DNA of 54,014 bases, the filler included, from Sluysia triapertura (taxonomy: Eukaryota): the NCBI GenBank assembly GCA_046118255.1. It is 4 parts of 4 records of this genome, joined end to end, with 100 filler letters (N's around TTAATTAATTAA, not from the genome) between each part and the next. Parts side by side here need not be neighbours in the genome. Positions count along the whole stretch, not along the records: positions 1 to 12,872 come from JBJNIA010076050.1; positions 12,973 to 28,746 come from JBJNIA010219692.1; positions 28,847 to 41,175 come from JBJNIA010118973.1; positions 41,276 to 54,014 come from JBJNIA010084918.1. One strand, given 5' to 3'. Below the pieces are notes generated by a model. That model saw nothing but the letters and a program-made list of their open reading frames with translations. It was not told the DNA's origin and ran no database searches. A program made the position numbers and the translations under genes. This document shows positions 4,626 through 54,014 of this stretch, piece by piece (within the stretch, counting starts at the first letter, position 1; each line of letters begins with the position of its first letter).

Positions 4626-5705
4626 TTAATTTATTTTATTTTTACTTGTTTTATCAATTACTCTTAATAAGAGAATCAATTCTAACTTAAAACAATTTGA
4701 ATTAAATTTATTTATATTTGCAAACAAGGGCTTAAGGCCCGTAACAATTAAAAAACAACAAATTATTAAATGATTTATTAACACGGCTGGACCTATCAAC
4801 ATTATAATATTTATAACATAGTGTGATAAATATAAGATATTTAACAAAAATAAAATAACCAGTGAACACGGAAAACACCAAAATATATGATCAGAAATAA
4901 AAGTTTTAGTCATTAAATAAAAAGTTAGCAGCACAGCAAAAATAACCACGTTTTCATCGTAATAAATTCCAGTTGTACTTCGACTTGGATAAACAAGAGC
5001 GACTGCTATGATAGAGACAGTAAAACAAACAGCATCATTATTCCACATTTCTTTAATTAATAAAATTGTTAACAAAACCGCAAAAGAACTAAAAATGGGT
5101 CTCATTAACATGAAGACTTCTCTGATATGAACTAATATTGATAACATGTCAAGAACGTAATGTACCAGTCCAGACGTTAACATTAATACAGGACAAATTG
5201 TCCCTCGTTCAATTCTTCTTAGCAGATACCAAACTTTATCATCGAACCAATTGATAAATTCATAAAAAGCTTCATGAACTAATTTAAGTGTTGAACGATA
5301 CTTGAAACATGGATCAGATTCATGAATAATATTTTCGTAAGGAATGACAGAAAACCATCTTGAATAAAAACTAATTGTACATGCTACTACCAAAATTAAA
5401 GTTGTAGATATACTATGACTGATATAACATTCAAATATTCCATGTGGTTTTGATATACAAACCATAATGAGTGAAATTAAAACGATCATTTCGGATACAT
5501 GGAGACTGTTTTTAACTCTTTTAACATTACTATAAATCAAATTTTCATTTACATGGTCGTATTTGAGTAAAAAATAATGGCAAGCATATTCGCTAATGGA
5601 TATTAAAGCTAATGCCGTAATGAAATAAGCTCTATTTGCTTTGTTAATTTCTTTAATTGTAGCATTTCTAGATATTTCCAATATTTCATAGTAATTCAAA
5701 CCCAT
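4626..5705 (-). CDS. Chimeric 359-aa ORF: DNAJB13 exon 1 + unknown membrane-protein segment + degenerate STT3 fragment + AT-rich tail containing the hairpin
   Basis: Uninterrupted frame. aa1-23 are a J-domain start, aa~97-284 are STT3-like, and GLKP is encoded by the hairpin at 4728-4740. Expression unknown. Confidence 0.6.
   Translation of the reverse strand: MGLNYYEILEISRNATIKEINKANRAYFITALALISISEYACHYFLLKYDHVNENLIYSNVKRVKNSLHVSEMIVLISLIMVCISKPHGIFECYISHSISTTLILVVACTISFYSRWFSVIPYENIIHESDPCFKYRSTLKLVHEAFYEFINWFDDKVWYLLRRIERGTICPVLMLTSGLVHYVLDMLSILVHIREVFMLMRPIFSSFAVLLTILLIKEMWNNDAVCFTVSIIAVALVYPSRSTTGIYYDENVVIFAVLLTFYLMTKTFISDHIFWCFPCSLVILFLLNILYLSHYVINIIMLIGPAVLINHLIICCFLIVTGLKPLFANINKFNSNCFKLELILLLRVIDKTSKNKIN
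4728..4740 (-). other. CTTAA-loop hairpin (GGGC-CTTAA-GCCC)
   Basis: Perfect 4-bp stem inside the 3' end of ORF 5705-4626, read as G-L-K-P. Confidence 0.75.
4854..5417 (-). pseudogene. STT3: Degenerate N-terminal fragment of oligosaccharyltransferase catalytic subunit STT3
   Basis: SRWFSVIPYENIIHESDPCFKYRST...FYEFINWFDDKVWY...HIREV...SRSTTGIYYDENVVIFA follows the STT3 pattern SRLF.VI.FESIIHEFDPWFNYR...NWFD.R.WYPLGR...SRSVAGSYDNE.IAI. The EFDPW and DNE motifs are altered, and the C-terminal WWDYG domain is absent. Confidence 0.9.
5638..5705 (-). pseudogene. DNAJB13: DNAJB13-like first coding exon (68 nt)
   Basis: MGLNYYEILEISRNATIKEINKA; homology stops after 68 coding nt (GC of Ala23), the position of intron 1 in human DNAJB13 (c.68). 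No GT follows. Confidence 0.8.
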
Positions 5706-5927
5706 ATTTAAATTTATTTTTAGTACTCAGTTAGTCAATAAATCATTATTTATTATTAAATTCATATATATTGCCATCAAATATTGTTTCACATAAATCA
5801 TAAACATAAATAAATACAAATCGCATAAATTGTGCTTTTATTTACATAAAATATGATTAAAATAATTTATGTTATCATAAAACGTGATTATTAAAATGAT
5901 TCAAGCTATAAAAATGATTTGAGTGTT

Positions 5928-6380
5928 TTATTTAATTACAAAATAAACTTCTTCTAATGTTAACATTAAATTTCTTTCTATAGGCGGATCTTGAATTTTT
6001 CGACCACGACCATATAAACCACCAAAATTGAAATGCAAATCTCCGTCAATGTGATCAAAGAATTCTTGGAAGGGATTATCAGAACTGTAAAATTCCATAA
6101 ATGTTCTTAAAGGATTTCCATGATAAGTATATCCATCAATCCATGCATTTTCACTAATTGCGTTTTTTGGTACTCCAGTTTCCAAGCCTTCTTCACCGAA
6201 TTGATCATAAATACCTCTTTTTCGTGCATCAGACAAAACATCGTAAGCTTCGGAAATCATTAAAAATTGATCTTGAGCACAATCTGAATATGGATTTCTT
6301 TCTGGATGATAGCGTAACGACAACTTTCGATATCGATGAACACAAATAGTGGGTGGTTCGGATAATTTATGATTCTCCAT
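5928..6380 (-). pseudogene. DNAJB13: Chimeric ORF: foreign 47-nt 5' segment (6380-6334) + DNAJB13-like exons 2-4 (6333-~5940), truncated
   Basis: YRKLSLRYHPERN...EAYDVLSDARKRGIYDQFGEEGLETGVP...GYTYHGNP...DNPF...QDPPIERNLMLTLEEVYF is DNAJB13-like (HPx variant of HPD, no G/F-zinc region). No AG acceptor precedes it, and the C-terminal half is missing. Confidence 0.85.
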
Positions 6381-6859
6381 ATTGATTAAATATGTTTTGT
6401 CGTAAAAAAAATAAAACAAACGGAGAGATAGATTGATAATAAGAATAAAAAGGAAATAATACTAATGATAACAATTATGTAGTTATTATGTTTATTAATA
6501 CGGAATTGTTGAAATTTATTATGACAATTATTATAAAAGTTATTATTTGGTATTTATTATACAACAATAATGATTATAATTTTTTTACACATGTTTTAAT
6601 ATGATATGAATCGTAATAATAATAGCGATAGCTGATGATAGTTAGATGTGATGGTCATGTTTATTTTTAAATGAGTTTAGTAGTTTGTTTAATAGTTTGT
6701 GTATATTTGGAGTGTTTTTATGCGATGAATTGTGATGAATTTTATGTGATGAATTCCCTACAATGACCAAGGAATCTATACTGAAAAATAAGATGGAAAA
6801 TTATTCTTATCGACAAAAAATTATGGTTACATGTTGCATGAGGTACTTTTATTAAATTG

Positions 6860-7352
6860 TTGAATAGTACATCTTACAAATGAAGTTGTTTTCGAAATTG
6901 TAAGTGAAACGGAATCGAACTACATATTTGGAATAGATTCTTTGACAAATTATAAATGGATCACATGTTTATAAAATAATACATATTTTGATGAAAATAC
7001 AAATGGTTTGGAAAATACTTTGTAAATGTTAAATAAAATTTTCTTCATCACTGAATATAAACCAATAATGTTGAATCAAAGAAAACAATCACTTCGCTAT
7101 GAATATCAAATAAGTAAACGATTCTTAAATTCCAACGCCAGACTGAAATCATTTATTTGTTATCCTCGAATCTTGATATCATCAAATTAAATGAAGTAGA
7201 TGATTTATAAACAAAATAAATTTAAAGGATTACTAATTGTAAACAATTACTAAATATCATTGTTTGCATTGCTGATATTCTTATTTAAGCTAAAATAAAT
7301 GTCGCAGAGGCTGACATTCGTAGGCCATGCCATATTCTCTGAAGGAATAAAA
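6860..7352 (+). mobile_element. Decayed Ty3/gypsy pol remnant
   Basis: VFEIVSETESNYIFGIDSLTNYKW (retropepsin ILG.D.L end), IVCIADILI (YIDDILI-like RT motif) and LTFVGHAIFSEGIK (RT FLGH motif), with stops and deletions. Confidence 0.55.
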
Positions 7353-8066
7353 ATAATGAATCAACAAAGAGTAGTAATATAAATTAAATTAATCCTACAA
7401 ATAAAAATTAACCATTGAATTGATAATTTCTCTACAACTAATTAATTTGTTCTATAAAACTTATTTCTTTTACAAAATAGATTATGTTAAAGTTATTTAA
7501 AATATTTAAAAAATACAATATTTTATCAATATTTAATATAATTTACAAATTGATACAAACTATTTAACTTTATTTACATTAATACAATATTGTACATTAA
7601 TACAATATTATAACTTTATTTACACTTTAAAAGGTTTAAGTTTTAAAGCTAACATTTTAGTAGTATGCGAGCTTGACATGTACGATTGTTGGTTTAATTA
7701 TGAAAAACGATGTCAAAATATAGAATTAATCGAACATCCCCTATACTGACAATGTTTATCATTAAAAGATAGTGCAAATCGTAATACATTAACTAAAGTT
7801 AATTATATATTGAATGATGCTACAGTTTATTTAATATAGATATTTATTTGATATAGATATTTTAAATTTTATGTAATTGAATTTGAAAAGAACCAATTTC
7901 AGTGAACCTGAAATCATAGAATGACAAATTAAAAATTATATATTAATCAATTATTACACGGTAATTTACTAAATAAAAATATCAAAAAATCCAAAATCAG
8001 AAAACGTCGAATAGAAATGATTTCAGTACATGGATAAAAGAATAATTTAATGCTTTTAGTTTTTCA

Positions 8067-9296
8067 TTGTGCGTCGTTGAAAATTTCTACAATGAAAATA
8101 CATCTAAATACAATGTCAATAATTTAAAGTTAGCTCTTAAATTTATAATTCTTGTCAGTTTTGCAGTATTATCGACAAATAGGAGATGTGTAGCAGACGA
8201 TAACTTTGATTTAACTGTAAGATTTATATTTCATTTTTCAATTATAGTTTCGTACCTTTACACTCCATTTACGAATGAAATAATCGAATATAGACATTTA
8301 GTAGGACTTCATCATGTTGTATTATTATCTATTTTATTATATGTTCTATCGAAAATGATTAATGTTTCAGTTTATGATTACAAATTTTTGCCATTATTTC
8401 AAGTAAACTTTGTTTTGTTTTGTATCAGAAGTCTTAGTTTCAATTTACTAATAAGTATTTTTCTCATATCATATGGATTCGTTTTATTCTCTGCACGTTT
8501 ATTATGGCTACAGACATATTTATCCGATAAACTACAAATAGAATATTATTGTTTTTGTAAATTGCAATTTATTGAAAACGATTGTTTTTATAGAAATCCA
8601 ATTTATCCAAATTATATTATATTTCAAAATCATTCTTCTAAAGATGATGATTCGATTAAAACATACGAAAATGTAGAATTTATTTTATCATTAAATTATA
8701 CAGATTTATTTCTCACTCGATCAATAACTATACGTGAGCGAACATTTTCTGGCAGCTATAATTGTGATACGCTTATTAATTATAATAAACATAAATTTTA
8801 CCACGGCAATTTTGGTGATGTTGATGTTATACATACAGATGTACATCGTGAATCGTATAGATTACGAAGAATTAATAGTGAGATAAAAACTGATAGTTTT
8901 TGTATGTCAAAAGAATCATTCTTAGCTCGCAATCATATGTTAAATTTGAAATGTTTAATAGGTGTTGAAAATCCATTATTCGAGAAAATAAATTCTAAAA
9001 GTATAGTTAATAAACATTTAATAACATTAATTATTAGCATTATTTATATTTTAACAATTTTTATGCTCAAAATAAAATTCAACCTTGTTTATTTGTTTAA
9101 TTTGTTGTTTACTAAAGGCCTTAAGCCTACTTTATTAATTGTTCACGAGTTCTATTTAAATTATTTTTCGTTAATTAGAATTTTTAACTTTTCTAATAAC
9201 AATTTTAAAACACAAAAACAAAGTTTAATATTTTTAATAATTGTTATAATTTTAAAAAGAAAAAGCTCTCTCAACATACACCTCTCACAATATTAA
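8067..9296 (+). CDS. 409-aa ORF of unknown, probably chimeric product (multi-TM N-part, possible decayed kinase N-lobe, tail with hairpin)
   Basis: Longest ORF in the window (TTG start in the track; first ATG is internal). HGNFGDV...RLRRI...E...H.LNL..LIG weakly resembles kinase subdomains I-IV. GLKP is encoded by the hairpin at 9116-9128. Confidence 0.45.
   Translation: MCVVENFYNENTSKYNVNNLKLALKFIILVSFAVLSTNRRCVADDNFDLTVRFIFHFSIIVSYLYTPFTNEIIEYRHLVGLHHVVLLSILLYVLSKMINVSVYDYKFLPLFQVNFVLFCIRSLSFNLLISIFLISYGFVLFSARLLWLQTYLSDKLQIEYYCFCKLQFIENDCFYRNPIYPNYIIFQNHSSKDDDSIKTYENVEFILSLNYTDLFLTRSITIRERTFSGSYNCDTLINYNKHKFYHGNFGDVDVIHTDVHRESYRLRRINSEIKTDSFCMSKESFLARNHMLNLKCLIGVENPLFEKINSKSIVNKHLITLIISIIYILTIFMLKIKFNLVYLFNLLFTKGLKPTLLIVHEFYLNYFSLIRIFNFSNNNFKTQKQSLIFLIIVIILKRKSSLNIHLSQY
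9116..9128 (+). other. CTTAA-loop hairpin (AGGC-CTTAA-GCCT)
   Basis: Perfect 4-bp stem inside the 3' end of ORF 8067-9296, read as G-L-K-P. Confidence 0.75.
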
Positions 9297-10188
9297 AAAG
9301 CAACATTCTTTGTAATTTCACAAATAATATAGATATTTCTAAAATAATTTGATAAAAAGTTTTTGCTCTTACAAAATTGTTCAATACAAAATGAACAATA
9401 CATTCATCATTTATATTAAAAATTGTTCCAACGATAACTTATATATACCAAAAATTAAAAATTATCAAATATTATTTAATAAAAATATATAAATTCAAAT
9501 TGTAAGAATACACACAAACAAATACGTAAACGACGCAAACAACAAATTTGTAAATGATTAAAATTATTATTAGAAAAATATATTTATTTAATTAAATCTT
9601 TTGTTACGACTTAAATCAATCATAACAATAATCCATTATTACTTTATTTAACTTAAATAAAATCTTAAATAATATCACAAGTTTTCTTATTTCGATAATG
9701 ATGTTGGGATTGCCCTACTGTGTATCAGAAAATGCCTGAGAAACATAATACTATAAAATGAAGAAAGAACTGATACAAGTGATAGATTGAGCTTTGTAGA
9801 CAACGTTGAAATGAGAGTCGTAAAAATTGAAGCATTTATGGTAATTTGAACAGCTAAAGAATACTTTGACATTACAAAGACATATATATATATAAGGTGT
9901 CGAAACATTGTGGAGGCTTGAAGAGGACTTGAAAAACCTTTGAAGGTGTTAATTTTCAGATCATCTAAGACTCAGTTAACCTTTAAGTATTCTGGGAACC
10001 TTGATAAGCATCAAAGATCTTCGAGTAAATATTATAAAGAGTATAAAATCTTCAAAATGTTTGAGAAATAAAATCTTTGTTCAAAATAATAAAGATAAGT
10101 TTAATGTGGTAATAATGAACGTGAAGAAGTAGAAAAAGGAATCAGAGAGGTGAGATGAAAACATCTAGAGCCTCCTGAATGACTGATA

Positions 10189-11350
10189 TGTAGTGGCAAA
10201 CACCCATAATTTAAAATTCACTAAGACATTACAACACTCAAATCACAATCACATTCAACATTACCAAATCACAACAACTAGTTCATAAAAAACATAACAT
10301 CTAAATCAATCACATTCTATACTATCGAATTATATTAACTGATTAATCATAAACAATATTCGACATTTATAAGACCTCAACAACATATACTTCTCAAACA
10401 ATTTGTTTTATAGTCTCAAATTTTCACCTCACACTATACTTTGTTAATTAATACCGAATGATCCATATCACTCACTCAATAATTATGCTCCCAAACCAAA
10501 TCACAACCACAACACATAATATTCAAGTCACAAATACATTAACACCATATAACAACATTAATAAACACATAAAACATAGAAAAATTCGAATCAATTATAC
10601 TAATTTAAAACCATTGCATCTGCACATAACCATTATCAACATTCTATAACAACATTATAAATATGCTAAGATTTGTTTGGTAATTGTCTTGTAAATTTAA
10701 TAAACCACAACCTTTTAACAAACTTCTTAAACCATTATATTCAGTGCATAAATTTTATTTTAAACCATAAACTCTAAATAAATCTCAAGAATTTATTCTA
10801 ACATTCTTTATTTCACTTACAACTTAAATCATTCCTTTTATCTTCAAAAATAAATTTAAAACAGCTTTAAAGAATTCATTTCTTTTGTGAAGGCAGCAAC
10901 GATAACTTAAGCACGATATACCACGTTACCGTTGTTCCTTTACAGTATACCAAATGTTTTATTTTTTCATTTTTATGTAAGAAATAAAGATAGCCTAAGA
11001 AAAGATCATGTAATTCAAGCAAGGTTTATGCGGTTTTTTAGTAATAATAATAACAACACTATTATTGTTGATATTGTTATTATTATTATTATCAAATTAT
11101 TAAATTATTAAAATATAAAATAAATGAAGTTCAACCTGGTTGTTACCATCACCAGTGTTGACACTAAATGTTACATTTTTCATTAACGTGCCAACACTGA
11201 TGATGGTCAATCATCAGTTGTATCGATCTTCATTTCACGTCAATAGTTTTTGTACACCATCCAAACAGAGTTCATACTATTAATTGTTATTGCTAAGACT
11301 CTGATTGGATGAGCTGAACAGTAGAATGGTTAAAACTAAAAATATCATTT
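10189..11350 (+). repeat. ~1.15-kb dispersed repeat, copy 1 (TGTAGTGG start, C/A-rich arm, (ATT)n tract, two stem-loops)
   Basis: Colinear similarity to 25018-26155 along its length (e.g. tatcgaa, taagattt, ttctaacattctt, gaattcatt, accagtgttgaca, ctgattgg). Confidence 0.8.
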
Positions 11351-11419
11351 TTATGATTAGCAGAAATTTGTATGCATCTTTTTTGAAATTTTAAATCTTA
11401 CTAAAGCGATCCGATTTTT

Positions 11420-11842
11420 ATGTATAACAAATCGTTGGCGAAAAAATTGATAAAGGTTTCAATGCTACCGAAATCCAATGAGTTTGATGAAATCCTTCTA
11501 TATCAAAAACAAAAAACCGAACAAGTTTCAAATGGTTACGCGATAATACCTTTTTGTAATCGCAAAAAAGATCAGATCAAAACACCTGTCGTTTATAATG
11601 TTCCCAATCATGATCCAAGTAATCTTAAGAGTATTTTACAGAGTCAACACATCTCAGGTGAAAACCATCTTTACGCCGAAACATTTTGGATAGACGATAA
11701 AGAAAAAGATGAAACTGAAAGTTGTAATAAGACACTAACTATAAGTTGCTGTAAAATTGATAAATCTCATAGACCAAGTCAAAAAGTTAATACTGATTCA
11801 ATTTCTAACCAGAATAGACTAAAATTTATAAAGAATAATTAA
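11420..11842 (+). CDS. 140-aa ORF, unidentified gene fragment immediately after repeat copy 1
   Basis: ATG-initiated frame with protein-like composition; no family recognised. Confidence 0.3.
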   Translation: MYNKSLAKKLIKVSMLPKSNEFDEILLYQKQKTEQVSNGYAIIPFCNRKKDQIKTPVVYNVPNHDPSNLKSILQSQHISGENHLYAETFWIDDKEKDETESCNKTLTISCCKIDKSHRPSQKVNTDSISNQNRLKFIKNN

Positions 11843-25017: not shown

Positions 25018-26155
25018 TGTAGTGGCCAACACTCACAACCTAAAATTTATTAAAACATTACATCCAACATTCATAACTCAAAATTTCACTAAAATATAAT
25101 TTCCAAAACAATCACACTTCTTACTATCGAACTACACCAACTCAATCACCATAAACACTACTACACATTCATAACATCTTAACAACTCATATTTAACAAT
25201 AACTCGATTAACACTTTCAATCATTCACTCCACACATTACTTAGATAATTAATCTCGAATAATTCACAACATTCACTCAAAAGCTATCTCTTCAAACAAA
25301 CCACAACCACAATATATAATACACAAATCATAAACACAATAACACCATTCAACAACGTTAACAAATACCTCAGAAATAGAAAACATTTACATTAAAATCA
25401 TTAACCAACGACACCAAGCTAAATCTACTTTATTTATACATGTTTATCATCAACATTTATTCTTAGCAACATCATAAATACATTAAGATTTATTTTGTAA
25501 TTATCTTTTAAAACTAAAATAATTTCAACCTTTCATTAAGCATAAATCTTATTTTTAAGTCCAATTCTTAATAAATTTTAGTAAATTATTCTAACATTCT
25601 TTGTTCAAAAACAACTAATCATTTCTTTTATCTTTATAAATAAACTTAATAAAACTTTAAGGAATTCATTGTCTTAATATGAAACATCAACGACAACCGA
25701 GACGTAGTACAGCATGTCATCAGTTTTGTTCTTTTTTATCATTTCGTATGTAAGAAAAATTAAAGAATTCTAAAAGAAAGATCTTGTAGGTTATTAAAAG
25801 AAAGTTTTACGCTTTTTCTTTAATAATAATAGTAATAATCTTAATGTTGTTATTATTGTTATTAGTTTTATTATTATTGTTATTATTATTATTATTATTA
25901 TTTATGTTAATAAATAATTAAAAATAAAAGTGCTTACCTTTTGACGATTAATCTGGTTACCGCCACCACCAGTGTTGACAGTCTATGTCACATTTTTCAT
26001 TAGACTGTCAGTCATCAGTATTTTTCTTTTTAATCTTCATCACTAAACACCTACATACTGCCCAATCAGACTAATGACTACTAATCTCACTGCTTGTAGT
26101 CTGATTGGGCAGATTAAAATAGAATACGAGAAAATGACGAATTAAATAATATTTT
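25018..26155 (+). repeat. ~1.15-kb dispersed repeat, copy 2
   Basis: Colinear with 10189-11350; perfect 16-bp inverted repeat at 26058-26073 / 26097-26112. Confidence 0.8.
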
Positions 26156-26286
26156 ATAAAAATTATGCCTTTTAAAAATTAGACAGAACAATAATTAGAA
26201 TTATATATAATTTTTAACGAGGTTTCGCAGTTAAAGAATTTTCAGCTCAATCATTATAATTTTTATGTTTTCAAAACAAGCCTAAG

Positions 26287-27285
26287 GTGTCACTGTTCAT
26301 TTATCAAGAAGTTATGAAAATATCCGAACCCAAATTGGATAAACAGTATGTACATGATAAAATGCTTAATTCTTTTGCGAACGATGTTACAATGTTTCGT
26401 ACTCCAGATAATGAAAAAGTAACTATTTCAGTATATGAACTAAAAAATGTTGCTAGCGGTTCATTTTGTGTAGTTTTCGAAGGTTTTATCGATGATAATG
26501 AACATAATACTTTTAAAAAAATTTTGGAAGATAAATGCGATAAAAACAGATAATTAAACTTCATGAAATCTTTGTCAAACAATCACATTACTACATTACC
26601 GTATCACCATTATTCATACGATAAAGAGAAAGATCAAAGTTATTTGAAATCAATTATGAACAGTGCTTCTCAGAATTTAACACGAATTTTACAATTTTAT
26701 ATTCGAAATAATTCATTTATGTCGATCAATCGTACCAATCAAATCGCTACCAATACTAATGTGAAATATGAATTTATGTCAATAGATATTCCTTTGTTTC
26801 CTGGAATTCATTCTCAATTTATTATTACTAATCTATCTAAAGCAAAACTACTAAAATCATTTAAGAAAAATAAAGTTTTATTTAGTAATCATAAAGAAAT
26901 TATTTTAATTGATGAGTACAATATTTTACCGGTTCCAGATAATATCCATGTTGATCGTTCCTCGAATACTATCACTAGTGATAACAATATAAATAACAGT
27001 GATGATACTGACAATAATAATACAATTGATGAAAGTTTAAATGGCAGCCCAAGGCAAAATTTCGAGAATTGTTTAGTAAAATATAAATTACATCATGATG
27101 TAAATCACAATGTTCCTGACAATAATTTATCAGAAAGCTATGAATATGTCAAACCAATTATTACGAACCTGAGTACAAAAGCTAAAAAAGAAACGAAAGA
27201 TTTGTTTAGAAATTTAATCTATTCAGAAGTATGTAAATTGATACATAACGAAATTACTGGTAAAATCGACACATTGATCATTTAA
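26287..27285 (+). pseudogene. GSK3: Chimeric frame with a GSK3-like kinase N-lobe fragment (about 26419-26727) fused to unrelated sequence; one internal stop
   Basis: SGSFCVVFEG...FKKILEDKCDKNR*LNFMKSL...YSYDKEKDQSYL...RILQFY aligns by eye with GSK3 GNGSFGVVYQA...[21 protein letters not shown]...YSSGEKKDEVYL...RVARHY. The TAA at 26551 replaces the alphaC Glu codon; no C-lobe. Confidence 0.75.
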
Positions 27286-27290
27286 AAGCA

Positions 27291-27594
27291 ATGTTTTCAA
27301 CAGCAAAAAACATTCAGTATGATTATTTGGACAAAACTTCATCAACGAGTTATGGTGATTATCAAATGGAATTAGACAGCGAAACACGCTCGTTAGATGT
27401 AGAAAAACCAGATGAAGATAATATAACGAACCTACTTGGCAAGGAAGATCATACAGCTTTTAAGAAGAACGATATCATTAACATGAAAAGTAACCTTGTA
27501 AGTGTCAAATTTATGTGTCATTTAAATTTTGATTTAGTTTACAAGTACATCAAGTGGATCCGCGGAGTACAGCAGAAATCTTTGTGGAAAATAG
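27291..27594 (+). pseudogene. Unidentified gene fragment with a putative 40-nt intron (27498-27537)
   Basis: GTAAGT...TTTAG; splicing gives ...MKSNL/FTSTSSGSAEYSRNLCGK*. Confidence 0.35.
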
Positions 27595-28151
27595 GGGCCC
27601 AGTACGAAAGGACAAAATCAATAATTCAAATTTTTATAATTAACAATTCAAATTTTAAATTTATAAAAGTTCATTATTTAATACAATTTTGCCTTTATGT
27701 TCTAAAAATGTTATTTAGTTATGTCGAAAATAAAACATAGTGTACATTTTCCTTTAAAGAGACTAAAGATAAATCTATTGTTGAGCTAGAATTTAGAACA
27801 ATTAAACTGGTGTATAAATGTATTCAAACCCAAAACTTAAACGACAAGTATAAGGCAAATAAACTTAATCACAGTAAAACTCATAAAGAAAGAATTTGGA
27901 ATTACAATATGAGTCCATATATAGGTCGAGTTAGTAATATCACGGCAGAAATAAATTACGAAGTGATAGGTCATCCTTTAAAACTCTATCCAAATAATCG
28001 TAAGAAGACTTTTACTAAACTTTTAGATAAAAATAAACTTATCAAAATAGTTTTAAATTTAAATTTATATAACAATTATAAGCCCTCCAAACCAACACAA
28101 GCTCCAAATATTAAACTTAAAATGTATTAAAATATTTATCTTTATAAAGGT

Positions 28152-28164
28152 GGACTTAAGGTCC
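28152..28164 (-). other. CTTAA-loop hairpin (GGAC-CTTAA-GTCC)
   Basis: Perfect 4-bp stem inside minus ORF 28361-28065, read as D-L-K-S. Confidence 0.7.
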
Positions 28165-28746
28165 TTGATGAATATGAAAAATATGAAAACTGAATATGAA
28201 AAATATAAAAAATTTCCATATATTATGCGAATTGTAAAAATAACAGCAATAGAACGAAAATTATAGATAAAATAACAATGTCCATTTGATAATATAAAAG
28301 ACCACGTACAATTTGAAAAGTCATGCCTCTGAAATCGACAACGTCTCGCGCAACACGGCATACAGGTTCCAATATATTCTCCGAGCGATCAACCTGTCTC
28401 ATAAATAATCTAGTTACAAACTTATTTTTTGATTAAAGCAAACCTCTATCGTTATAATGAAACTTTACTGGGGCACCGGAATTTATATTGTCTTTATTTC
28501 AAAATATTGAAAGTTAACTAAACAATTACATTAACACGTTATCTCGATATATTTTAAATATAATAGAAATAACAAATTACCAACTGTTCTTTAAAAATAA
28601 TATATAAATTCAAAATTACAAATCACTATATGCATATGATTGATCACTAAAATTATATCAGAGTGACACAACAAGATAAATGTTGACGCCCGTATTAAAA
28701 ATTAAGAAAATAATAAAATACGTGATTGACTAACCGCAATCATAAT

Positions 28747-29576: not shown

Positions 29577-29606
29577 TCATAATTTCATTTTCTTGGTAAT
29601 GATTTT

Positions 29607-29641
<35 letters not shown>

Positions 29642-36271: not shown

Positions 36272-36321
<50 letters not shown>

Positions 36322-41275: not shown

Positions 41276-42016
41276 ACACTCATTGAATCTTTTTCTTCAG
41301 TAATAATACTAAAATAAGGATAAGATTACGTGGTTAGTAGAGAGCTAGGATTTATTTTATTTTTATTATTTTATATTTTATATGTGGTAACAGCATTTAT
41401 GTTGTGTAACCCCTGTGATTTTTAAAAAATTAGAAAATAATTTATTAAAGAATTTGATTTAAAGAATTAAAAAGTTTGATATAAAGAAGTTGATTTATAG
41501 AAATATATTTGTCATATAGAGATTTGATTTGTATAACTGTTATATAAAAAATATATTGAGATTCAGTTTTATTTGATTTTTAGTTATTAAAGAGGGATAT
41601 TAATAAACGAAGAGACAACAATACTGATAAATGTGTAGTAAGTTTTATAAATAATACTCTTGGGCTGTAATAATTGATTTCACATTTATAATAATAACAA
41701 TATGATTTTGATTTGTTTTGATCATTAATATTGGGTTAATTATTATTATTTGATTTTAATATTATTAATGTTAATATTATTATTGGATATTATATTTAAA
41801 TAGTATAATAATAATAATTATACAAATATCACATAAAATAATGATAAATAAAGATAAATAAAAGTATTAATTAAATTAGTTGATTCTAAATATCTAAAAT
41901 AAATTTTTATTTTAATTTAATATTTTGTTTCATTAAATCAAAATATCAATAAAAAAATGGAAGCTTAGATTTAACTATTTAAAACAAATTTTTTATAGTA
42001 AAATCAGAAGTAAAAA

Positions 42017-42173
42017 TGTTGGGGTAAAAAGGCCTAAGGTTCCATAAGGTAAAATTGACAATAATAAAATAAAACTGTTAGACGGGGCTGATAGCTCAGT
42101 GGCAGAGCATCGAACTGCGCAACTAAAGGTTCCGGGTTCGAACCCCTGTCAGTCCATTTTACGAAGTCTAACA
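42017..42173 (+). mobile_element. TGTT...AACA tRNA-carrying element, copy 3 (157 bp)
   Basis: Full length; AAAA on both flanks; internal inverted pair TGTTAGAC (42076-42083) / GTCTAACA (42166-42173). Confidence 0.85.
42085..42156 (+). ncRNA. tRNA-derived pseudo-tRNA (72 nt)
   Basis: 7-bp acceptor stem GGGCTGA/TCAGTCC, D arm GCTC/GAGC, T loop TTCGAAC, TTTT terminator; anticodon stem TCGAA/ACTAA does not pair. Confidence 0.7.
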
Positions 42174-44282
42174 AAAACTAGGAATTGAAAATTAAAGATT
42201 ACTAGGACAAGCAGCAGAAAAAATATAATTGAAGAAAAATTCTACGAAGACAATTAAGTCCATGAGTCAAAAGTAATTAAAACTTACAGTTTTTTCCAAA
42301 ATCCTAACTTTAAACAAATAGGATTAATTAATATATACTTAAAATTTTATTTTCATTTCCTAGACCGTAAAAAGGCTAGGTTAATTTGTAATTTAAAATC
42401 TAATTTTGATCTCCCAAGCCTTATGCTTAGGGAAGTAAACTCATTATTCTTATATTTTAAGCTTGAATAGAATTTTTTACGATTTATATAATAAAGTTTT
42501 TGTAGTACTTATTTATTATTCATTATTAAAATCATTTACAATTTAATCATACCGTAAAACGGCTGATTCAAACTTTAAATTACTTTAATATTTGAGAGAC
42601 CGTAAAACGGATGTCTTAATTTTTTCAATTTTCATTTTATTTAGATTTTAAAGTATTTAATATATTAAAAATTGAATTGAAGTGTTAAAACAAAATTATA
42701 AGCACAACCTAAAAAACTATTTATGATAATAGGTTAAATATTACTCGTGACACATCATTTTAAAATTTGTATTACAAAAAGGTGTATTATTACGATGGGC
42801 CATAAATTACATTTAAATAATAAAATATTTAACTTAATTATTGTTACATTCACATTAAGATGTTTTAATACAATTTCATTATTTTATTAGATGTAAACTG
42901 TTACTTATTAAGAAACATTTTTTAATACAAGGAAGTGTTCAATATATTAAAAGTAATAATTCATTTAAAATAAATTATTAAATATCATATTTTGTAATTT
43001 TGTTTTACTTATTTAAAATGGTATAAATTTGACTTATTTAATTTAAAACAGTAAATAATGTACAATAAACTTATCTTTGTTTTTAATAATTTTTTGTTTT
43101 CTTATTTTGACTATTTTTTGCATCAAATTTGGTTGTTATATAAATAGTATGCATTGTTTTATCACAGCCAATTTTGATGAGATTAAGTAGTCATTAAACA
43201 ACAAGAAAATACTGAAACGTAATTAATTCTTAGAAATGTCATGTTACTATGATTATATCACATTGGAGATCGTTTCATGCACAGCGGTTTGTCTTATGAA
43301 GTTTTTATTGATTTATTGTATCTCATTTTGTGGTTTTGATGTTACAGTCATGAAAATTTTATTGTCTACAAAAGCAGAAGTAATAATTAATATACTATTT
43401 TGTATAAAATACATAAATAAATTTTAATTTCTATTTAGTGTAGATTAATTGCACCTGAATATGTTTTAATATAATGGGTTTTAGTTTATTTGATCGATGG
43501 TTGTTAATTAAATGGGTTTCACATTCATATAATTTGCAGATTCTAGATATATTGTGCTTTTGTAATGAGACACTATGTAATTAAAATGTTGGATTACATT
43601 TTAAACCTTTTTTTAGTATTTTTGTAATTTATCCTAATTCATTTTTCATTGCATATTAATCCTAAATAGCATTAAAATTTTATTTTCCAATAATTAAAGT
43701 GTGATCTATAATATTTTTAAGTGCTTTTGTGAGTTTAATTTAAAGATAAATGTGTAAATGGATATCAATGTAAAGAACTTAATTTAATTGGTACGCGCTA
43801 TATAAATCCTTAAAACATAAAATTTAATCATAAATAACAATATAACATTACAATGAAATTTCTAAAAAAGTAAATCGAGTTTTTTCATTTTTTTCTCTAG
43901 AAGTCTTTCATGTACAACTAAAGATCTCTTTCGTTTTACATTGACTTTCTAAATTATATTTTGAAGCTAGATGCAAACTGGATAAACAATTGTTTATTTT
44001 ACTTGAGTTTAAAGAAGAGGACAAAACCTATTCACTTAAAACTTACTATTTAACGGAAAAAGTTATAAATGTGCTAAATCCAAAATCCTCGTGGTATATA
44101 ATCTTAGCTCCAATTAACATCCTTGATTTTTGTGTAATCTCCTCTTGATACTTACGATGTTTATTCTCTGTGGTCTCTAAAAATCATCTCTTTGTCCTTT
44201 TCAAAATTAGTAATCGTGTTATTGTGGTATGCAGACTTCTTTAAGGTTTATATATGTGAATGTTGAGGGTCCTTTTATATAG

Positions 44283-44441
44283 AATTATTAAATTACTACT
44301 TTCAATACAAATTAATGCAATATTTAATAATGTAAGGAACATATTGTACACATTGTAATGAACATACATTATTAATTTGTGACAATTTAACAAATTATTG
44401 ATTTTCTAGTAACTTCACAATTTATTGATTTATAATTTTTG
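44283..44441 (+). repeat. Left arm of a long imperfect inverted repeat
   Basis: aacatacatt..tttgtgacaatttaa..ttcacaatttattgatttataatttttg is the reverse complement of sequence at 48434-48538, and acaaattaatgcaata matches about 48644-48665. Confidence 0.7.
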
Positions 44442-44449
44442 TTAAGTCA

Positions 44450-47092
44450 ATGGGTTTTCTATGCATTGGGGTTGGGATTATTGTTTCATCATCATTAGCT
44501 TTATTTTTCCTAGGTCTACTTGGTCTTTTAAAAGCATTTGTTTTTTTATCTTCAGTTTCTACATGTGGCTTTTTGTTTAAGTCTACTATATAATCCGGTT
44601 TGTCTTCATCATTATCATTAGTAATGTCTATAACTTCATTTTAATTATAATTATCTTCCATTAATTCTCTTAGTAATGAACGTGGGTTCGTTCTATCCAA
44701 ATCAACATCATTATCTTCATTTATTAATCCATCTAATTTTCGTAAATCATCTGAAGGCTTAGTATATGCCATTATAACTGCGGAAGTCATTGACGCTTTC
44801 TCATGGTTTCCATTCATTGATGGATAACCGTAATCATTTATATAATTATTAGGTAATAATTTTCTATCATAAAAATATAAATCAACATCAGTTATAGCAG
44901 AGTCATTTGACTTAAGTAATTCTATAATATCTTATGCAATTGAAGTTACTGAAAGTTCCATGGTAATATTTAAGGCATTGTTAATAATTATACATATTTT
45001 CATTAATTCTTTAGGGTTACCTTTTCTTTCTTTTTGTCCTATTTTCCTTAATAATTTTCTTGCTTTACTCTTGTATAAACTATCTTCCTTACTTAGAATA
45101 GCTAATACTAATTTAATATCATATCCATTTTGTATACTTAATTCTAAATTCAATAAGTCATTTAACTTTTCATTTAAGTCCTTGCCATTTGTCATATTTG
45201 ATAAAAATTCCTCAACCTTTTGGTTAATTTCTTTAATTCTTATTTCTGGGGTATCTATCTTTTCATTAGCTGATATTATTATTACTGATTCCATTTCTTC
45301 TGTGGCACTGTAATACGCACCTTTTTCATCTGTCTCCATTTCTTATGTTTGTAATTTTTCATCATCAGTTTCTTTATTATTAATAATATTTTCTATATCT
45401 TTTTCTACTTCTTGATCATCACTTAGTTCATTATTTGGTTGTTTTTCTTCTTGATTTGATTCTTCTTCTGTTGAACTTGATTCTGAATTCGATTTTTTTC
45501 TTTCCTTCCCATTTGTCAATTATTACCTGAATTCTTTTTATTTTATCTTCATTTGAAATCATTTCTTTTATCTCTTTTATTTGTTCAATACTTTGGTTGA
45601 ATTGTTAATCTATTTTCTTCTTTTTCTTGTTGTTCCCTTCTCTGTTTATACTTCTGAAATTCCAAATATCTATCATGCATATAACTCATAAAGATTTCTT
45701 CTTGTTTATTCTTAAATCTATTTTTATCACAATCTTATCCAGTGATATAGAATTCTCGTAGCATGGCATTCTTTTCTTCGTCGATAATTAACTTAAAGTA
45801 TTTATCATCTTCTTCATCGCTACTCATTTCCCTTCTTCTAGGTTGTCTTCTACTTCTATTTCTTTCTTGATGTTGATATTCATCTTCATCTTCGTACTAG
45901 TTCCTGTTATTTCCATAATCTTTTAGACTTCTATAGTCACAATTTACCTGTCCTTTATTATTCTTATTGTTATCATTATCATTAAACATTACTTTCCTAT
46001 TAGGGCTTTGGTATCTTTGTTGATATTGGCCCTTTACCTTAGTAAAATCTTAAGTAAATACATTTTGTCTTAATTTCCTGCAATCTCTTGCGTAATGTCT
46101 TTTTTATTACAGTTATCACAGATTATTTCTCCATCTATATTAGTTTGAGTCTTATTATTGTTTTCATAACTTATTGGACTCTTACTCCTATTCCTGTTAA
46201 AGTTAGAACTCGGTGGCCATCTTGGTGTTGGTCTTTGTTCATATATAGAAGCACCATAATTATTTGTTCTATTGCTTTGGAATCCTCTATCTCTATTATT
46301 ATTTCCTCTATAATAATTATTTGAGTTACCCGTGTGATTGCTGAATTATTTCTGGAATTATATGAGTTGCTTCTATAATTGTTTGAATAACCTCTATAAT
46401 TATTTGAATTTGAATTACCATTGCCACTATCTGGGCTATTGTAGTTAAGCCATTATATCTTTCATAATTCTAAAAATTAAATTTATTATCATAATTATTT
46501 GTATTTCTTCTTAATTTCGGACTTTTATCTCCTTTGTCTTCATTGTCACTTATATAATCAATATTATTCTTATTCTTTATATACTTATAGGAACGTTCTA
46601 TGCTTCTTATTTTCTTAATATCTTCTTTAAAAGGTTTTCTTTCTATTAAGGTGACACATGTTATTAATTCTGGTCATAATCCAGTTTTTAGTTTATCTGT
46701 TAATGCTATTTCTTTTTTATCTTCAGAGATTTTAGCTCTAGCAACAAGGCTTTTAAGAGCACAAGCGATTAATATGCAGATTCATTTGGCTTTTGAATCC
46801 TAGAGTTTAACGTCATCAAGTGCTATTTCTTCAGTAAATTCATTCCAAGTTTGTTTATTATTATTACTTATTTCCTTATAGGTCTGGATAGTCACGAATA
46901 ATTTTGGATTCGTTTTATTTTTTCGGCTTCATTGCAGCCGTTTGCTTCAGCTATGCTTTCATATTCGAATAAGAAATCACAGATATCTTTCTCTGATCCG
47001 TCAAATTTTTTAATTTCGGGTAATGCCATCATTGGGCACATTTCTCTGCCTAATTGAGCCATATATTCCTTAAAATCATTAGGTAGAGCCAT
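44450..47092 (-). mobile_element. Decayed gag with a long charged C-terminal region; no pol or env recognised
   Basis: MALP...EIKKFDGSEKDICDFLFEYESIAEANGCNEAEK (gypsy gag F.G....D.FL..YE..A..NGW pattern); segments homologous to the gag at 21040-22090. Confidence 0.7.
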
Positions 47093-47341
47093 ATAATTTC
47101 TTAATTTTGATCTGTAATCGTCATATAGTACAATTTGTTTATCTATTTTTCTTAAACTTACTTAATCTATTAATAATCAACTTAGGGAATAATAATTTTC
47201 CTAAAATTTAACTTATTCTTAATGAAATCGTAATCAAATTCTAACACTATTATTCTAAAGCTTCTTCTTAAATGCTTAAGTGCTTAAATCTTAATACTGG
47301 TTCTCAAATTCTTCTTTAATTTTATATTATGTCAATATTGG

Positions 47342-47359
47342 TCCTTACTCCGGGCACCA
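47342..47359 (-). promoter_or_regulatory. Primer-binding-site-like sequence TGGTGCCCGGAGTAAGGA
   Basis: TGG-starting GC-rich 18-mer about 250 nt upstream of the gag ATG, shortly after ...CACACA; primer tRNA not identified. Confidence 0.45.
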
Positions 47360-48433
47360 GTTTATTCTGTGTGAAAATTCTTAGAATAAAGTATGATTTT
47401 AACGTGAGTCCACCAACGTACTAGGCTTACCAGTTAAGGCTAGCCATTGGATTTACAAATAAAAGATTTTGAAGTAAAGGTTAGAATGACTTTCCAAAAC
47501 GTGTGTGGTTTTACTAGGTTATTTTTGGCCTAATATCTTTACTGTTAATTTCAAATTTGGTAAATCTGGCTGAATTGTGGAGGTATTTTTAATAGATAAA
47601 AGTTAATGCAAGGTGTCACTAGTATTAAAATTATGGGCAACTAAGGTAAATGTTTCATTAACTGAAAAAATATTAATAGAAACAGTTTACAAAGCAATTT
47701 ACGAGGATCCTATGAAAAGGATCTATGAAAAGTGATTTTATGTTATTAGAATTAAATTCTAATAGATGAAAGCTTTACTCCACTGGGAATTTTATAATTA
47801 AAACCATAAAATTTAATAATGAAAAAATGAATTCTTATAAATTTTTATTATACGCTTGATAAATTAAACAAGATTATAAATGTAATTAAATAAATAAGTT
47901 ACGTGGAATTAATCAAATCTAATTCTCTAATTGATGATATTTTAGCAATGATTTTACGAAAAATCTATTATAAGATTTTTTGGAAATAATTACAAAAATG
48001 GTTTTAAGTCGATTTTGCGAGGATATATATCGTATATCCGTAACTTAATATAATAAACTAACGTATTTATCAAAAAACCGGAATTTGGTGAAAATTTTTC
48101 TTAGCAGGAATCCTTTAATCAAATTTGCTTTCTCTTGCCATTTCGTTGAGAAAAGGTTTATAAACTTTAACAAATTCTGGTTAAAATTTATGTCTCTCAA
48201 AAATGTGCTAACAAAATTGTGTGCTGTTTTTGCAACTATTTATAGTCGATTTAGCTGGCCTTGGCCAGATTAAAACAAAATATTTTATTTAATTTATTAA
48301 AACAAGATTTTTAAAGATATTAAAATAATTTAAAATTTTACGTATAATTAATATAACTGCTTACGTTAGTTTATTTTAAAAATAATAATCCAAAATTAAT
48401 TAGATAAATTAATGCGACCAAAAATATAAAAAT

Positions 48434-48690
48434 CAAAAATTATAAATCAATAAATTGTGAATAATCAATAAATAGTTTTACAATGTGAATAATATGTAAG
48501 TATTAATAAATAATTTAAATTGTCACAAAATGTATGTTTTATTTATTCATTATATATAACTATTATATATTAATGTGTTTTATATAAATTTAAAATTTCG
48601 AAATTTTGACTGATAGAGTCGGAAAATATTTTAATTATTTTTATATTGCAAAATTAATTTGTTTTTTAAAGTAAGTATTTTAATTTTTAT
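48434..48690 (-). repeat. Right arm of the long imperfect inverted repeat
   Basis: Inverted match to 44283-44441, with insertions. Confidence 0.7.
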
Positions 48691-51600: not shown

Positions 51601-52180
51601 TTCTTAATACATTGTATTATTTTTAATTTAAATCATAATGTAGTAAATTTATTTGTTACGGTGACAATTAATTAATGTACAAAATTTAAATTTTATCATA
51701 GAAAAATTTTAAATTTATTTTTTTGAAATTTATATATTATGTAAGTAATTAATTTTAATTAAATTGCAAATTTAGTATAGCTGTTTCATATTGCGACACA
51801 ATTAAAAAATTAAGATCAGAATTAATTTTTCCCAGTTGGAGGATTAATTTTGTCATTTTTTAAATTAATTTATTTTTATACTCTTAAAATGAAACGTTTT
51901 TTTAGAGCAAGGTAGAAGTACAGTTTTAAATGGATCTATTTAAACACTAAAAGCAGTAAGAAGATTAAAATTTTTACATTTATTTAAATATTTTATTAAA
52001 ATCTCAGTGCAAGGTTTATTTAGAACAATGATATAATTTTGTTTGTGATATTCTTGTCACGTGAATATACTACATATGAAGGTGTATAATGCTAATATTT
52101 ATCAGATCGGTGAATTAAAATTTACAATCAAAATCATAATTCAAAACTACTATATTTGAGATACAGTTCTGTGATTTTAA

Positions 52181-53200
52181 CCCTTTCGCCGCCGCTGGAA
52201 CCAATTGGTCCCATACGTATTTCTGCAAGTTTCTCTCAGGCTTAAGCAGGTCATGATTTATATTGTTTTAGAGGATTAAATAAGGACAATGTTTGCATAA
52301 TCGTTTCTGCTTTTAAAGTGTGTGCACAAAGTTATTTCAGTAATATATCACCAATTTGTGAGAAAAATATTTGAATCAAATATAATATGTGAAAATATTA
52401 TAAAGTCTAAAGTTATTATTACTTTTGTTAGAAGATGGCAAAGGCTAATGATTACGATGAGTTTATGGCTGATAATATGTCAAACTACGATAGTGACGAA
52501 GATACTGATGTCGAAGAGAATATTGACTCAGATTTATTGAATGATACATGGACGTGGTAAAATACGCACTTTCAACCAAATTTTCATAATTATACATGCC
52601 AGGCAAAACCAAATATTTCGAATATTTTTTTGATAACGACTTCATGACTGCTACTGTAAACGAGACCAACAATTATCAATTTCAAAATCCAGTTGGTGAA
52701 CGTGAAATATTGGTTAAAGTGACTGTTGCTTATTTGTGGATTTTCTTCGGATTAGTTTTACTCGCAATGAAAATGATTTGGAACAATGTTGGGCCGTAGA
52801 TAGTCTCATTTCAACAGATATTTTTGGACGAATAATGTCAAGAAATAGATCAGAGATATAATGCGTTGTCTTCAATTCAAAAACAATACAATTCCTTCTC
52901 ATGATCGACTGTGCAAAATAAAGAACGTTGTGCATTGTCCCGTTTCAAAACTTGTGTTTCGACGAGAACCTTCTTCTTTGAAAAGGACGGCTTACATGCA
53001 AGCAGTAAATACCATCTGGTCTGAAAATGTTTTTACTAGTTGTTCTTGACATAATTATTTACACTGGAAGTACAACAGAAATCAGAACTGTTCTAGACCT
53101 TGGTTTTAGTGGTTCAATTGTTATGACGCTGATGAAGAAAAATACGCTTTATGTCGATAATTGGTATACGAGTCCCAAACTATTTGTGTAATGGCCGGCT
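52181..53200 (+). mobile_element. piggyBac element: 5' end and transposase pseudogene, 3' truncated
   Basis: TTAA-CCCTTT end; acidic N-terminus from ATG 52435; EYFFDND..TVNETNNY, IMSRNR, DRLCKIK, IIYTG, GSIVMTLM and YVDNWYTSPKLF motifs with frameshifts. Confidence 0.9.
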
Positions 53201-53253
53201 TATATCGACAATTAATTTAAAATTCAGATTTAAAATTAACTTTAATGGGAAAT

Positions 53254-53268
53254 AAGACTTAAGGTCTT
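53254..53268 (-). other. CTTAA-loop hairpin (AAGAC-CTTAA-GTCTT)
   Basis: Perfect 5-bp stem inside the 3' end of the RPAP3-containing ORF, read as D-L-K-S. Confidence 0.75.
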
Positions 53269-53589
53269 TTGAATTATTATCATTTCTAAAATTGCTTTTA
53301 TTAAAAAAAAGAAATCTGGAATAACAACGAGAATTAATATATTTAACAAAAAATTTAGTAGGCGTAACAAAAGTCATACACAAGACATCATATAATATAG
53401 AGTTCATTTTAAAATGCAGTTCAATAACTGTCAGTAATTGAATATCACTAAGAATTTCAAAGTTATGAACAATAAATATAAAAAGTGAATGTTCTAACGA
53501 ATTAAAGAGGAAAGTTGGAAACGCTAGCTGCACGTCTTGATTGACAAAAAAAAACTCGAACCGAACATACCAGAGAAGTGCATTCTTTT

Positions 53590-54014
53590 TCTTTTCTTCT
53601 TTTACTGGGACCTCAGTACTTTCCAGTTTATCAGGATTTACTTCTACAATAGAAACTGAATGCATTGGACCATCATAACCTCTACTAGGCAGAGGTTTAT
53701 CGAATATTGGTTTAACGACACCTCGCGGACTTAGTTCTTCAAGCATTAATTTTGCAGCTTTATTTTCGGGTTCAAATTTTAATACGATTTTAAAATCATC
53801 AATAGCTTCATCAAACATTGAAAGATTTTTTTCGCATAGAGCTCGTCTGAAAAATGCCTTAACGTTTAAACTATCATATTCTATAACTTTATTGCAATCT
53901 TTAAAACCATTTTGAAAATCATTTAATTTAATATAAGCCATAGCACGATTACAATATAGAGTTGCATTTTTTGAATCTAACTCAAGGCCTTTACTGTATT
54001 CTTTAATGGTTTCA
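53590..54014 (-). CDS. RPAP3: RPAP3-like TPR co-chaperone segment (runs off the window edge); the frame stays open to 53180 through unrelated sequence
   Basis: TPR clamp (LYCNRAMAYIKL, VKAFFRRA, FEPENKAA) followed by VKPIFDKP...PMHSVSIVEV, resembling the RPAP3 post-TPR segment. The RPAP3 C-terminal domain is not seen. Confidence 0.7.

Follow-up and report, generated by a model that had tools for sequence, protein, structure and literature searches.

We analyzed a stretch of 54,014 nucleotides from Sluysia triapertura (assembly GCA_046118255.1), referred to as the window, in which open reading frames (ORFs) composed of host gene pieces run through short hairpins of the form stem-CTTAA-stem. 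The composites are highly repeated and are without protein machinery. We give an even chance to the reading that long terminal repeat (LTR) retroelements captured spliced host mRNA and that the hybrid ORFs end in U3; the CTTAA near-palindrome is probably a motif conserved immediately within the 5' end of the LTR. The new points are the abundance, the cargo that is diverged yet open, and a splice-exact permutation. A sequence-only reading of the same DNA had reported the hairpin sites and the open frames, both of which are real, and had taken them for a family that packs host exons by means of the hairpin; this account is partly supported and needs correction. The window consists of four contigs of 12-16 kb joined by N44-TTAATTAATTAA-N44 linkers, its GC content is 25%, and CpG depletion is absent.

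Host gene pieces in open chimeric frames

The longest stop-free frames are, as first reported, ORF2 (416 codons), ORF1 (366 codons), and ORF3 (277 codons, open at the 5' end). They are listed here with a shorter fourth frame and with the host gene pieces in and beside ORF1.

ORF1, 4626..5705, minus strand: DNAJB13 codons 1-23, a 76-codon linker, an STT3B fragment, and a 56-codon tail through hairpin H1
STT3B fragment, 4797..5408, minus strand: N-terminal membrane part, 204 codons without gap or stop; highly repeated
DNAJB13 c.1-68, 5638..5705, minus strand: stops at the human intron-1 position, with no GT after it
DNAJB13 from c.69, 5940..6333, minus strand: residues ~24-153, intron-less, upstream of c.1-68, with no AG before it
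ORF-A, 5928..6461, minus strand: second in-frame chimera, with an ATG at 6380, 15 codons of other sequence, and then DNAJB13 from c.69 onward
ORF2, 8046..9296, plus strand: hydrophobic module (codons 1-182), a P0121-like piece, and a tail through hairpin H2
ORF3, 53180..54013, minus strand: SPAG1/RPAP3-type TPR exon, a donor-like GTATGT at 53570, and 131 stop-free codons through hairpin H3
ORF4, 28065..28388, minus strand: 107 codons without homologue; likely an incidental antisense frame

Both cargoes that had been assigned to ORF1, DNAJB13 and STT3, were recovered, the latter being STT3B; its homology extends to codon 303 and is followed by the AT-rich tail of 56 codons. ORF1 codons 100-303 align gap-free to human STT3B (E 1e-46), and ~85 of the 204 positions are identical (~42%, counted from the alignment). 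The cargo is without the lumenal domain, and the position of the DXE motif, which has a role in STT3B activity, reads YDE; the fragment is likely no working transferase, judging from its sequence. Protein searches with ORF1 at near length and with the STT3 piece at longer length found nothing, a result that reflects the limits of the search, as Pfam and PDB do match STT3B.

The DNAJB13 cargo is circularly permuted. The beginning of a DnaJ domain occupies the first 68 nt of ORF1, and residues ~24-153 (E 3e-43) lie upstream of these; the permuted block is 696 nt, or 232 codons, in length. Both cuts fall at c.68/69, both junctions are in phase 2, and no GT or AG remains. In human DNAJB13, a splice donor lies at c.68+1G (PMC12984594). 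The permutation creates two in-frame chimeras, ORF1 and ORF-A, which the sequence-only reading had not noticed. Because both cuts lie at the human intron-1 position and in phase, a spliced RNA template is indicated. No introns occur within the 204 codons of STT3B or the ~130 codons of DNAJB13; the observations that bear on an origin from spliced mRNA are these intron-less pieces and the two cuts at the human intron-1 site.

Segments of several genes share one open frame in ORF1 (DNAJB13 and STT3B), and two modules do so in ORF2; the two frames encode seven and five predicted hydrophobic segments, respectively. The P0121-like piece of ORF2 lies at about 8592-9026, and residues 176-314 show 33% identity to P0121, a single unnamed protein that was the sole match among 1.84 billion representatives. 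The earliest ATG of ORF2 is codon 104. An Atlas search gave no usable match for ORF2 or for the ORF at 26554, and the single-sequence model of the transmembrane (TM) module was poor (pLDDT 57), its fold matches being generic helical bundles that indicate no family. A kinase-like identity, suggested earlier for ORF2, was ruled out, no Pfam family having been found.

Depth was taken from contigs of one public sequencing run that contains 59% of the sampled window words. The run contigs were aligned to window positions 1400-12760 at 80% likeness, and 8 of 24,692 pieces were listed. The summed depth was 12-20 on unique pieces of this region, 3,200-9,900 at four STT3B sites, 10,000-15,000 over the hydrophobic (TM) module of ORF2, 200-900 over its P0121-like piece, and ~300 over the ORF1 linker and the DNAJB13 block; a contig of depth 153 spans 6037-6334 (the DNAJB13 piece from c.69). 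Ten bases beyond H1 the depth was 6,200, and the repeated sequence thus runs on past this hairpin. Both the STT3B module and the TM module are highly repeated, abundance differs between modules, and many variant contigs exist; a module depth far above that of unique pieces, which gives no copy count, is the feature expected of secondary amplification. Among the differences between ORF1 and the run contigs (40 of 983 rows listed), seven of the eight listed change the residue, and in four the contigs carry the STT3B residue. This ORF1 copy has therefore drifted from a family nearer the host gene.

As had been proposed, the frames stay open through non-cargo sequence beyond chance from composition. 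In segments picked post hoc, the probability of a stop-free run was ~0.002 for the ORF1 linker (76 codons), 0.003 for the ORF1 tail (56 codons), 2e-6 for the ORF2 hydrophobic module (182 codons), 7e-4 for the ORF2 tail (95 codons), 1e-4 for the ORF3 tail (131 codons), and 1e-3 for ORF4 (107 codons). Seven module junctions keep the frame, five of them located only by the end of homology. Selection for translatability is plausible.

The CTTAA motif and its LTR-type surroundings

The hairpins occur in the window at a density of about one per 11 kb.

H1, 4728..4740, minus strand: GGGC-CTTAA-GCCC, perfect stem
H2, 9116..9128, plus strand: AGGC-CTTAA-GCCT, perfect stem
H3, 53254..53268, minus strand: AAGAC-CTTAA-GTCTT, perfect stem
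H4, 28152..28164, minus strand: GGAC-CTTAA-GTCC, perfect stem; GGAC-TTAAG-GTCC when read in the probable sense of its unit
H5, 2177..2240, no strand assigned: tip of an imperfect palindrome with ~30 bp per arm, including a G-T-paired copy around 2209-2215

The four perfect sites and the G-T-paired fifth copy are present as reported, and the copies are spread over three of the four contigs. With both strands read, four of seven CCTTAAG readings extend by at least three more perfect pairs, whereas the number of such sites in 300 local dinucleotide shuffles averaged 0.083 and reached at most 2; when any 5-nt loop was allowed, four copies of one loop were reached in 0/60 shuffles. The hairpin stands close before the stop, the loop-to-stop distances being 103, 169, 76, and 88 nt in the four ORFs. 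All four sites agree in reading frame, although this agreement is weak evidence (chance ~1/8) because TAA blocks one of the three frames. The motif is a near-palindrome. H5 is highly repeated, with a summed depth of 16,000 beside it, and lies outside any long ORF.

The flanks had been described as different at each site. This description does not hold for H1 and H2, which are preceded by the same 12-mer and have AATTTGTTGTTT just upstream; outside the core, likeness between the flanks of the five sites was non-significant (best p ~0.05 of 20 tests). The joint pattern of AATTTGTTGTTT and hairpin, chosen post hoc, matched twice in the window and never in 100 shuffles. The 81-nt contexts of H1-H4 folded no better than shuffles (z -1.5 to 0.4), and that of H5 gave a z of about -2. 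An Rfam scan returned three matches, two tRNA-like and one mir-2, none of which lies at a hairpin.

Other roles for the motif were considered and rejected. A U12 branch point or 3' splice site would leave the stems unexplained, and the donor-to-motif distance in ORF3, 313 nt, is no multiple of 3. A +1 frameshift at CUU AAG would lead into frames that close within a few codons. A junction of two TTAA-type transposon ends was sought with Kolobok (PMC9587614) and piggyBac as models, and no 12-nt partner end was found within 8 kb at the five sites. No report of a CTTAA hairpin in cargo-carrying elements was found in the titles and abstract openings listed. A further GC-rich hairpin with another loop, CTGGC-CAAG-GCCAG, lies at 48249-48262.

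H1 and H2 lie inside LTR-type starts, and repeats without cargo carry the motif, in looser form, at the corresponding position. The units concerned are as follows.

E1, 4753..4764, minus strand: AATT followed by TGTTGTTT, an LTR-type start common with E2; far end not found
E2, 9103..9544, plus strand: 442 bp, 8/8 inverted ends TGTTGTTT/AAACAACA, AATT on both sides
E4, 28122..28673, plus strand: likely LTR-type unit co-linear with E2; ends in CACAACA; start uncertain
Cargo-free unit, 42017..42173, plus strand: 157 bp, TG...CA, flanked by AAAA, with a tRNA-like core and, 13 nt after the start, GGCCTAAG
Cargo-free homologue, 22928..23082, minus strand: 155 bp, TAAT on both sides
Third homologue, 12722..12872, plus strand: tRNA-like core, ended by the contig edge

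H2 lies 13 nt inside E2, and H1 lies 20 nt inside the TG start of E1. Exact copies of AATTTGTTGTTT number three in the window, namely both ends of E2 and the start of E1, with 0.2 expected. Of the candidates listed, 14 on the plus strand and 19 on the minus strand, E2 is the sole TG...CA unit with 8/8 matching ends and an exact 4-bp duplication; such a pair arises at 0.05-0.125% of random sites, or ~1% over the 10 site-orientations tested. E2 also contains AATAAA at 9478 and TATATAA at 9486, and its ends may be compared with the LTR end consensus TGTTRNR...YNYAACA (PMC3601003). The LTR-type combination of short TG...CA inverted repeats and a duplication is thus complete at E2, limited to the start at E1, and weak at E3 and E4. 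The motif was found 6-20 nt inside TG starts, and 5 of the 11 GGC[CT]T?TAA[AG] sites have TGTT[AG] at most 26 nt upstream, compared with a background of 6.4% (p 3.6e-4, post hoc).

The three repeats with tRNA-like cores begin with TGTTGGG, and some 12 nt further on they have GGCCTAAG, GGCTTAAA, or GCCTAAG. The 155- and 157-bp units have common ends and different 4-bp duplications, and a further start on the minus strand (-40770) is alike over its first 25 nt only. Stems in these cargo-free units are imperfect or absent, and the perfect hairpin is therefore one state of a wider motif. Judged by the orientation of the tRNA-like sequence, the motif stands at the 5' end of U3; ORF1 and ORF2 thus run in the sense direction into an LTR-like unit, which they enter by 44 and 63 codons, respectively. 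These findings do not support the claim that the hairpin is a cargo-specific cis element of a family with no known termini, H1 and H2 being inside LTR-type ends and the looser motif being present in cargo-free units. The proposed family of mosaic open frames carrying host exons survives in that the hairpins stand in highly repeated mosaics; its exons are better described as cargo resembling spliced mRNA.

The claim that all four perfect hairpins lie on a coding strand with an ORF leaving through it fails for ORF4 and perhaps for ORF3. E4 resembles E2 over 61 nt (80%, E 1e-10, plus strand) and shares the ACAACA end; these matches make E4 co-linear with E2 on the plus strand and put ORF4 in antisense. 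As a frame, ORF4 is probably incidental; stretches without a stop and of that length hold 8% of strand positions, so it carries little weight. A 59-codon ATG frame with a hydrophobic end (28223-28399, minus strand) overlaps ORF4 in another frame. A long decayed ORF stops at the start of E4 (26260-28130, plus strand); it comprises ~620 codons interrupted by two stops and one frameshift, searches gave neither a family nor a relative, and a 24-aa stretch resembles the ORF at 1852-2154 beside H5.

ORF3 starts with an intact-looking TPR block and may be a resident exon. Its best solved match is SPAG1 (E 1e-36), and RPAP3, the name first given to it, comes second (E 5e-25). No further RPAP3/SPAG1 exon after ORF3 was found in 58 of the 86 listed minus-strand fragments (at least 28 aa) of contig 4. 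The tail contains no hydrophobic segment and terminates at a piggyBac-like remnant. This remnant (52180-53190) has a weak DDE_Tnp_1_7 match (E 0.035) and a TTAA-CCCT end; its assignment, like that of a short TTAA-flanked repeat resembling a miniature inverted-repeat transposable element at 3160-3365, is presumptive.

Proposed retroelement capture and its alternatives

An element transcript would pick up host exons via splicing and via template switching during reverse transcription, and the hybrid ORF would then run into the U3 of a downstream LTR. The last ORFs of LTR elements often run into U3. Lineages with an open frame would likely have been amplified more, perhaps as translated RNA escapes decay. 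A circle, or else a short tandem duplication, that spans intron 1 could have given rise to the permuted DNAJB13 piece; its transcript would have been spliced at both intron-1 sites and then reverse-transcribed. The palindrome may act as DNA, by offering a site for a protein close to the integrase end or within the promoter, or else as a stem-loop in the RNA, and the data fit both alike.

Several observations weigh against this reading. Past their first 36 nt, E1 and E2 resemble each other no more than random AT-rich windows do. No second copy of E1, E2, E3, or E4 was found in the window, the contigs of which are short; no cargo there was seen with an LTR on each side. The 18 nt before E1 and E2 hold no purine tract (50% and 28% purines; 0 and 2 G), and after none of the ends is there a TGG primer site; neither a polypurine tract (PPT) nor a primer-binding site (PBS) was found. 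The duplication on both sides of E2 fits the insertion of a solo LTR and not a 3' LTR. H3 and H4 have no TGTT start in the orientation of the ORF, and H3 resembles H4, so that the 131 open codons of ORF3 would be antisense and left unexplained. No reverse transcriptase or integrase was detected in the fragments scanned (71, 116, and 19 in three scans, short fragments not all included). The presence of DNAJB13 intron 1 in the lineage of S. triapertura is assumed from human, and a resident gene for phosphoenolpyruvate carboxykinase (PEPCK) has long exons, which makes intron-less cargo weak evidence on its own. Summed depth is not copy number, the run may be the window's own sample, and internal cargo junctions are bridged by none of the 8 listed contig pieces (of 24,692).

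Remains of a possible autonomous partner occur at 21000-24900 (plus strand), where decayed gag-like, aspartyl-protease, and Monjiviricetes-type fusion glycoprotein (env-like) pieces (best E 8e-11) are interrupted by stops and by a tRNA-bearing unit; a gag-like region occurs again at 45400-46700 (minus strand). No link of the gag-like, protease, and env-like remnants to the E ends was found. Starts of another family, TGTTAGG followed by ACCCTACAAAAT, lie at 21002 (plus strand), 29078, 36273, and 2243 (minus strand), and H5, which comes 27 nt later than such a motif, may be a member of the family.

Solo LTRs with the motif could have landed by chance in or beside mosaics amplified otherwise; the hairpin would then be unrelated to the cargo, and the frames would run on since U3 would be intrinsically open in that frame. 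This explanation, unlikely in our judgment, gains from the AATT on both sides of E2, from the missing PPT, PBS, and partner LTR, from the fit of H3 and H4 to the opposite orientation, and from the motif in cargo-free units. However, it needs the correct orientation and frame twice (~1/36) and 44 plus 63 open codons in unrelated U3 sequence. The depth is also similar before and after the point where either unit, E1 or E2, begins, and the 6 listed loose ends (of 3,043) all fall elsewhere, although this evidence is weak.

A narrower form of the capture reading would make copying depend on translation in one unbroken hydrophobic frame through the CTTAA stem-loop. The composites would then be a genome-wide class in which host exons are recruited phase-matched by splicing, even permuted; in-frame fusion genes would arise by the hundreds with no need for a canonical PPT, PBS, or second LTR, and the proteins would not need to work. 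We consider this form distinctly unlikely.

It is still less probable that the ORFs are a selected host membrane-protein family produced by retro-shuffling, with the LTR piece domesticated as the 3' end. The seven and five hydrophobic segments predicted in ORF1 and ORF2 accord with such a family, as does a heavily altered STT3B piece without stop or gap where nonsense changes are expected at ~5% of substitutions. The listed differences of ORF1, however, behave as in relaxed sequence, seven of eight altering the residue and four leading away from STT3B; moreover, YDE is found where STT3B has its DXE motif, the first 103 codons of ORF2 contain no ATG, and the ORF3 tail has no hydrophobic segment.

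Penelope-like elements, the pseudo-LTRs of which have a 5' palindrome, might also frame captured host sequence, a proposal we find very doubtful. In rotifers, pseudo-LTRs with 18- and 38-bp 5' palindromes frame host genes (PMC3846280), and H5 is the tip of a palindrome of ~30 bp per arm. The rotifer insertions, in contrast, retain introns and have 8-10-bp duplications (PMC3846280), whereas the duplications here are of 4 bp, the ends are TG...CA, the cargo is intron-less, and the joins are splice-exact. A hammerhead is absent among the three Rfam matches.

Helitrons and Pack-type elements were the analogy of the sequence-only reading; DNA capture of their kind, in which the hairpin would serve for rolling-circle replication or as a terminal signal, we regard as very improbable. 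The Helitrons HLE1 and HLE2 resemble the present composites in their gene-fragment mosaics and short hairpin (PMC11417382), and the covarying GC-rich stems and the unequal abundance of the mosaic modules would suit such capture. The composites differ in having no CTRR end or subterminal inverted repeats, and their hairpin is internal to repeats. CTRR within 30 nt after the stem, as in HLE1, occurred at none of the five sites in the forward direction and at two of five in reverse (18 and 25 nt). Subterminal inverted repeats of 11-17 nt, as in HLE2 and Helentrons, were absent at H1, H2, and H4, and H3 and H5 had one distant match each; a single 15-nt inverted repeat near H5 would favor such capture. 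The repeated sequence running on past H1 and the intron-less cargo also argue against DNA capture. Pack-MULEs have long terminal inverted repeats (TIRs) and a duplication of about 9 bp around the cargo, neither of which the composites show. None of the 25 longest inverted repeats in the window frames a cargo ORF, and the earlier statement that Helitron and Pack-MULE ends are absent is therefore upheld for the window.

Assembly chimeras of collapsed repeats are equally improbable: the contigs of 12-16 kb, the very high repeat load, and the junctions bridged by 0/8 listed pieces (of 24,692) would allow them, whereas low-depth contigs match 7751-8125 and 9243-9566 difference-free, and two splice-position hits with seven in-frame junctions would be unexpected from misjoins.

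The parallel of retroelement capture lies, instead of with Pack-MULEs and Helitrons, with maize Bs1 and LTR-mediated retroposition, as the cargo resembles spliced mRNA. In Bs1, as in the present composites, a single hybrid ORF joins several pieces of host genes, including a piece of a membrane protein, and Bs1 was re-amplified; unlike them, it is LTR-flanked and present in 1-5 copies (PMC13317346, PMC5131818). Here, the modules are repeated hundreds-fold by depth with one LTR-like end per ORF, and several unrelated mosaics, one with a circularly permuted piece, occur within 54 kb. LTR-mediated retroposition in animals is likewise marked by multi-gene chimeras, partial mRNAs, and secondary amplification, with switch points sometimes near exon junctions (PMC5131818). 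Its model, however, requires both LTRs and microsimilarity, and 14 of 21 older retrocopies lost frame or function (PMC5131818), whereas the diverged pieces here stay open. Neither two LTRs nor a PBS with a PPT was found around the cargo, and so the composites are not filed as a member of the Bs1/LTR-retrocopy class.

[quoted passage not shown] Unlike Helenus, which carries no cargo, these repeats are represented in the window by solo units only, and the searched text on Helenus mentions no palindrome, hairpin, or TTAA motif (PMC10886601). Ginger DNA transposons have TGTNR ends and 4-bp duplications as well; their TIRs are 40-270 bp (PMC2836005), compared with 5-8 bp here (8 bp at E2), and here the cargo lies outside the unit.

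Neighboring features and implications

Other repeats in the window include 2537-2915, 6545-6760, and 9738-10500, which are hugely abundant (summed depth >175,000 versus 12-20 on unique pieces), and 10189-11185, which shows 66% likeness to 25018-26002. The resident GTP-type PEPCK exons (18219-19408, plus strand) are seemingly intact, with a GT-AG intron; the closest relatives are 58-65% identical among the animal matches listed, and no relative above 65% was found among the matches listed. A mir-2-like precursor lies at 43116-43186 (plus strand), at 42.3 bits versus the Rfam cut-off of 45.5; mir-2 is of protostome type. The PEPCK and mir-2 matches mark the source as an invertebrate and likely a protostome, without a close relative in the databases used. 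Searches of metagenome contigs and viral contigs found no relatives.

If solo LTRs account for the arrangement, the hairpin is an ordinary LTR motif. If retroelement capture is correct, the composites would show exon shuffling of the Bs1 type in an animal, at high copy number and with diverged cargo still in frame, and the splice-exact permutation would record the manner of capture. Whether cargo frames are kept for the protein or for RNA survival would become testable, as hundreds of copies of the STT3B module make nonsense and frameshift rates countable against copy success. Annotators of this lineage would also be warned that long ORFs with good STT3 or DnaJ matches can be repeats.

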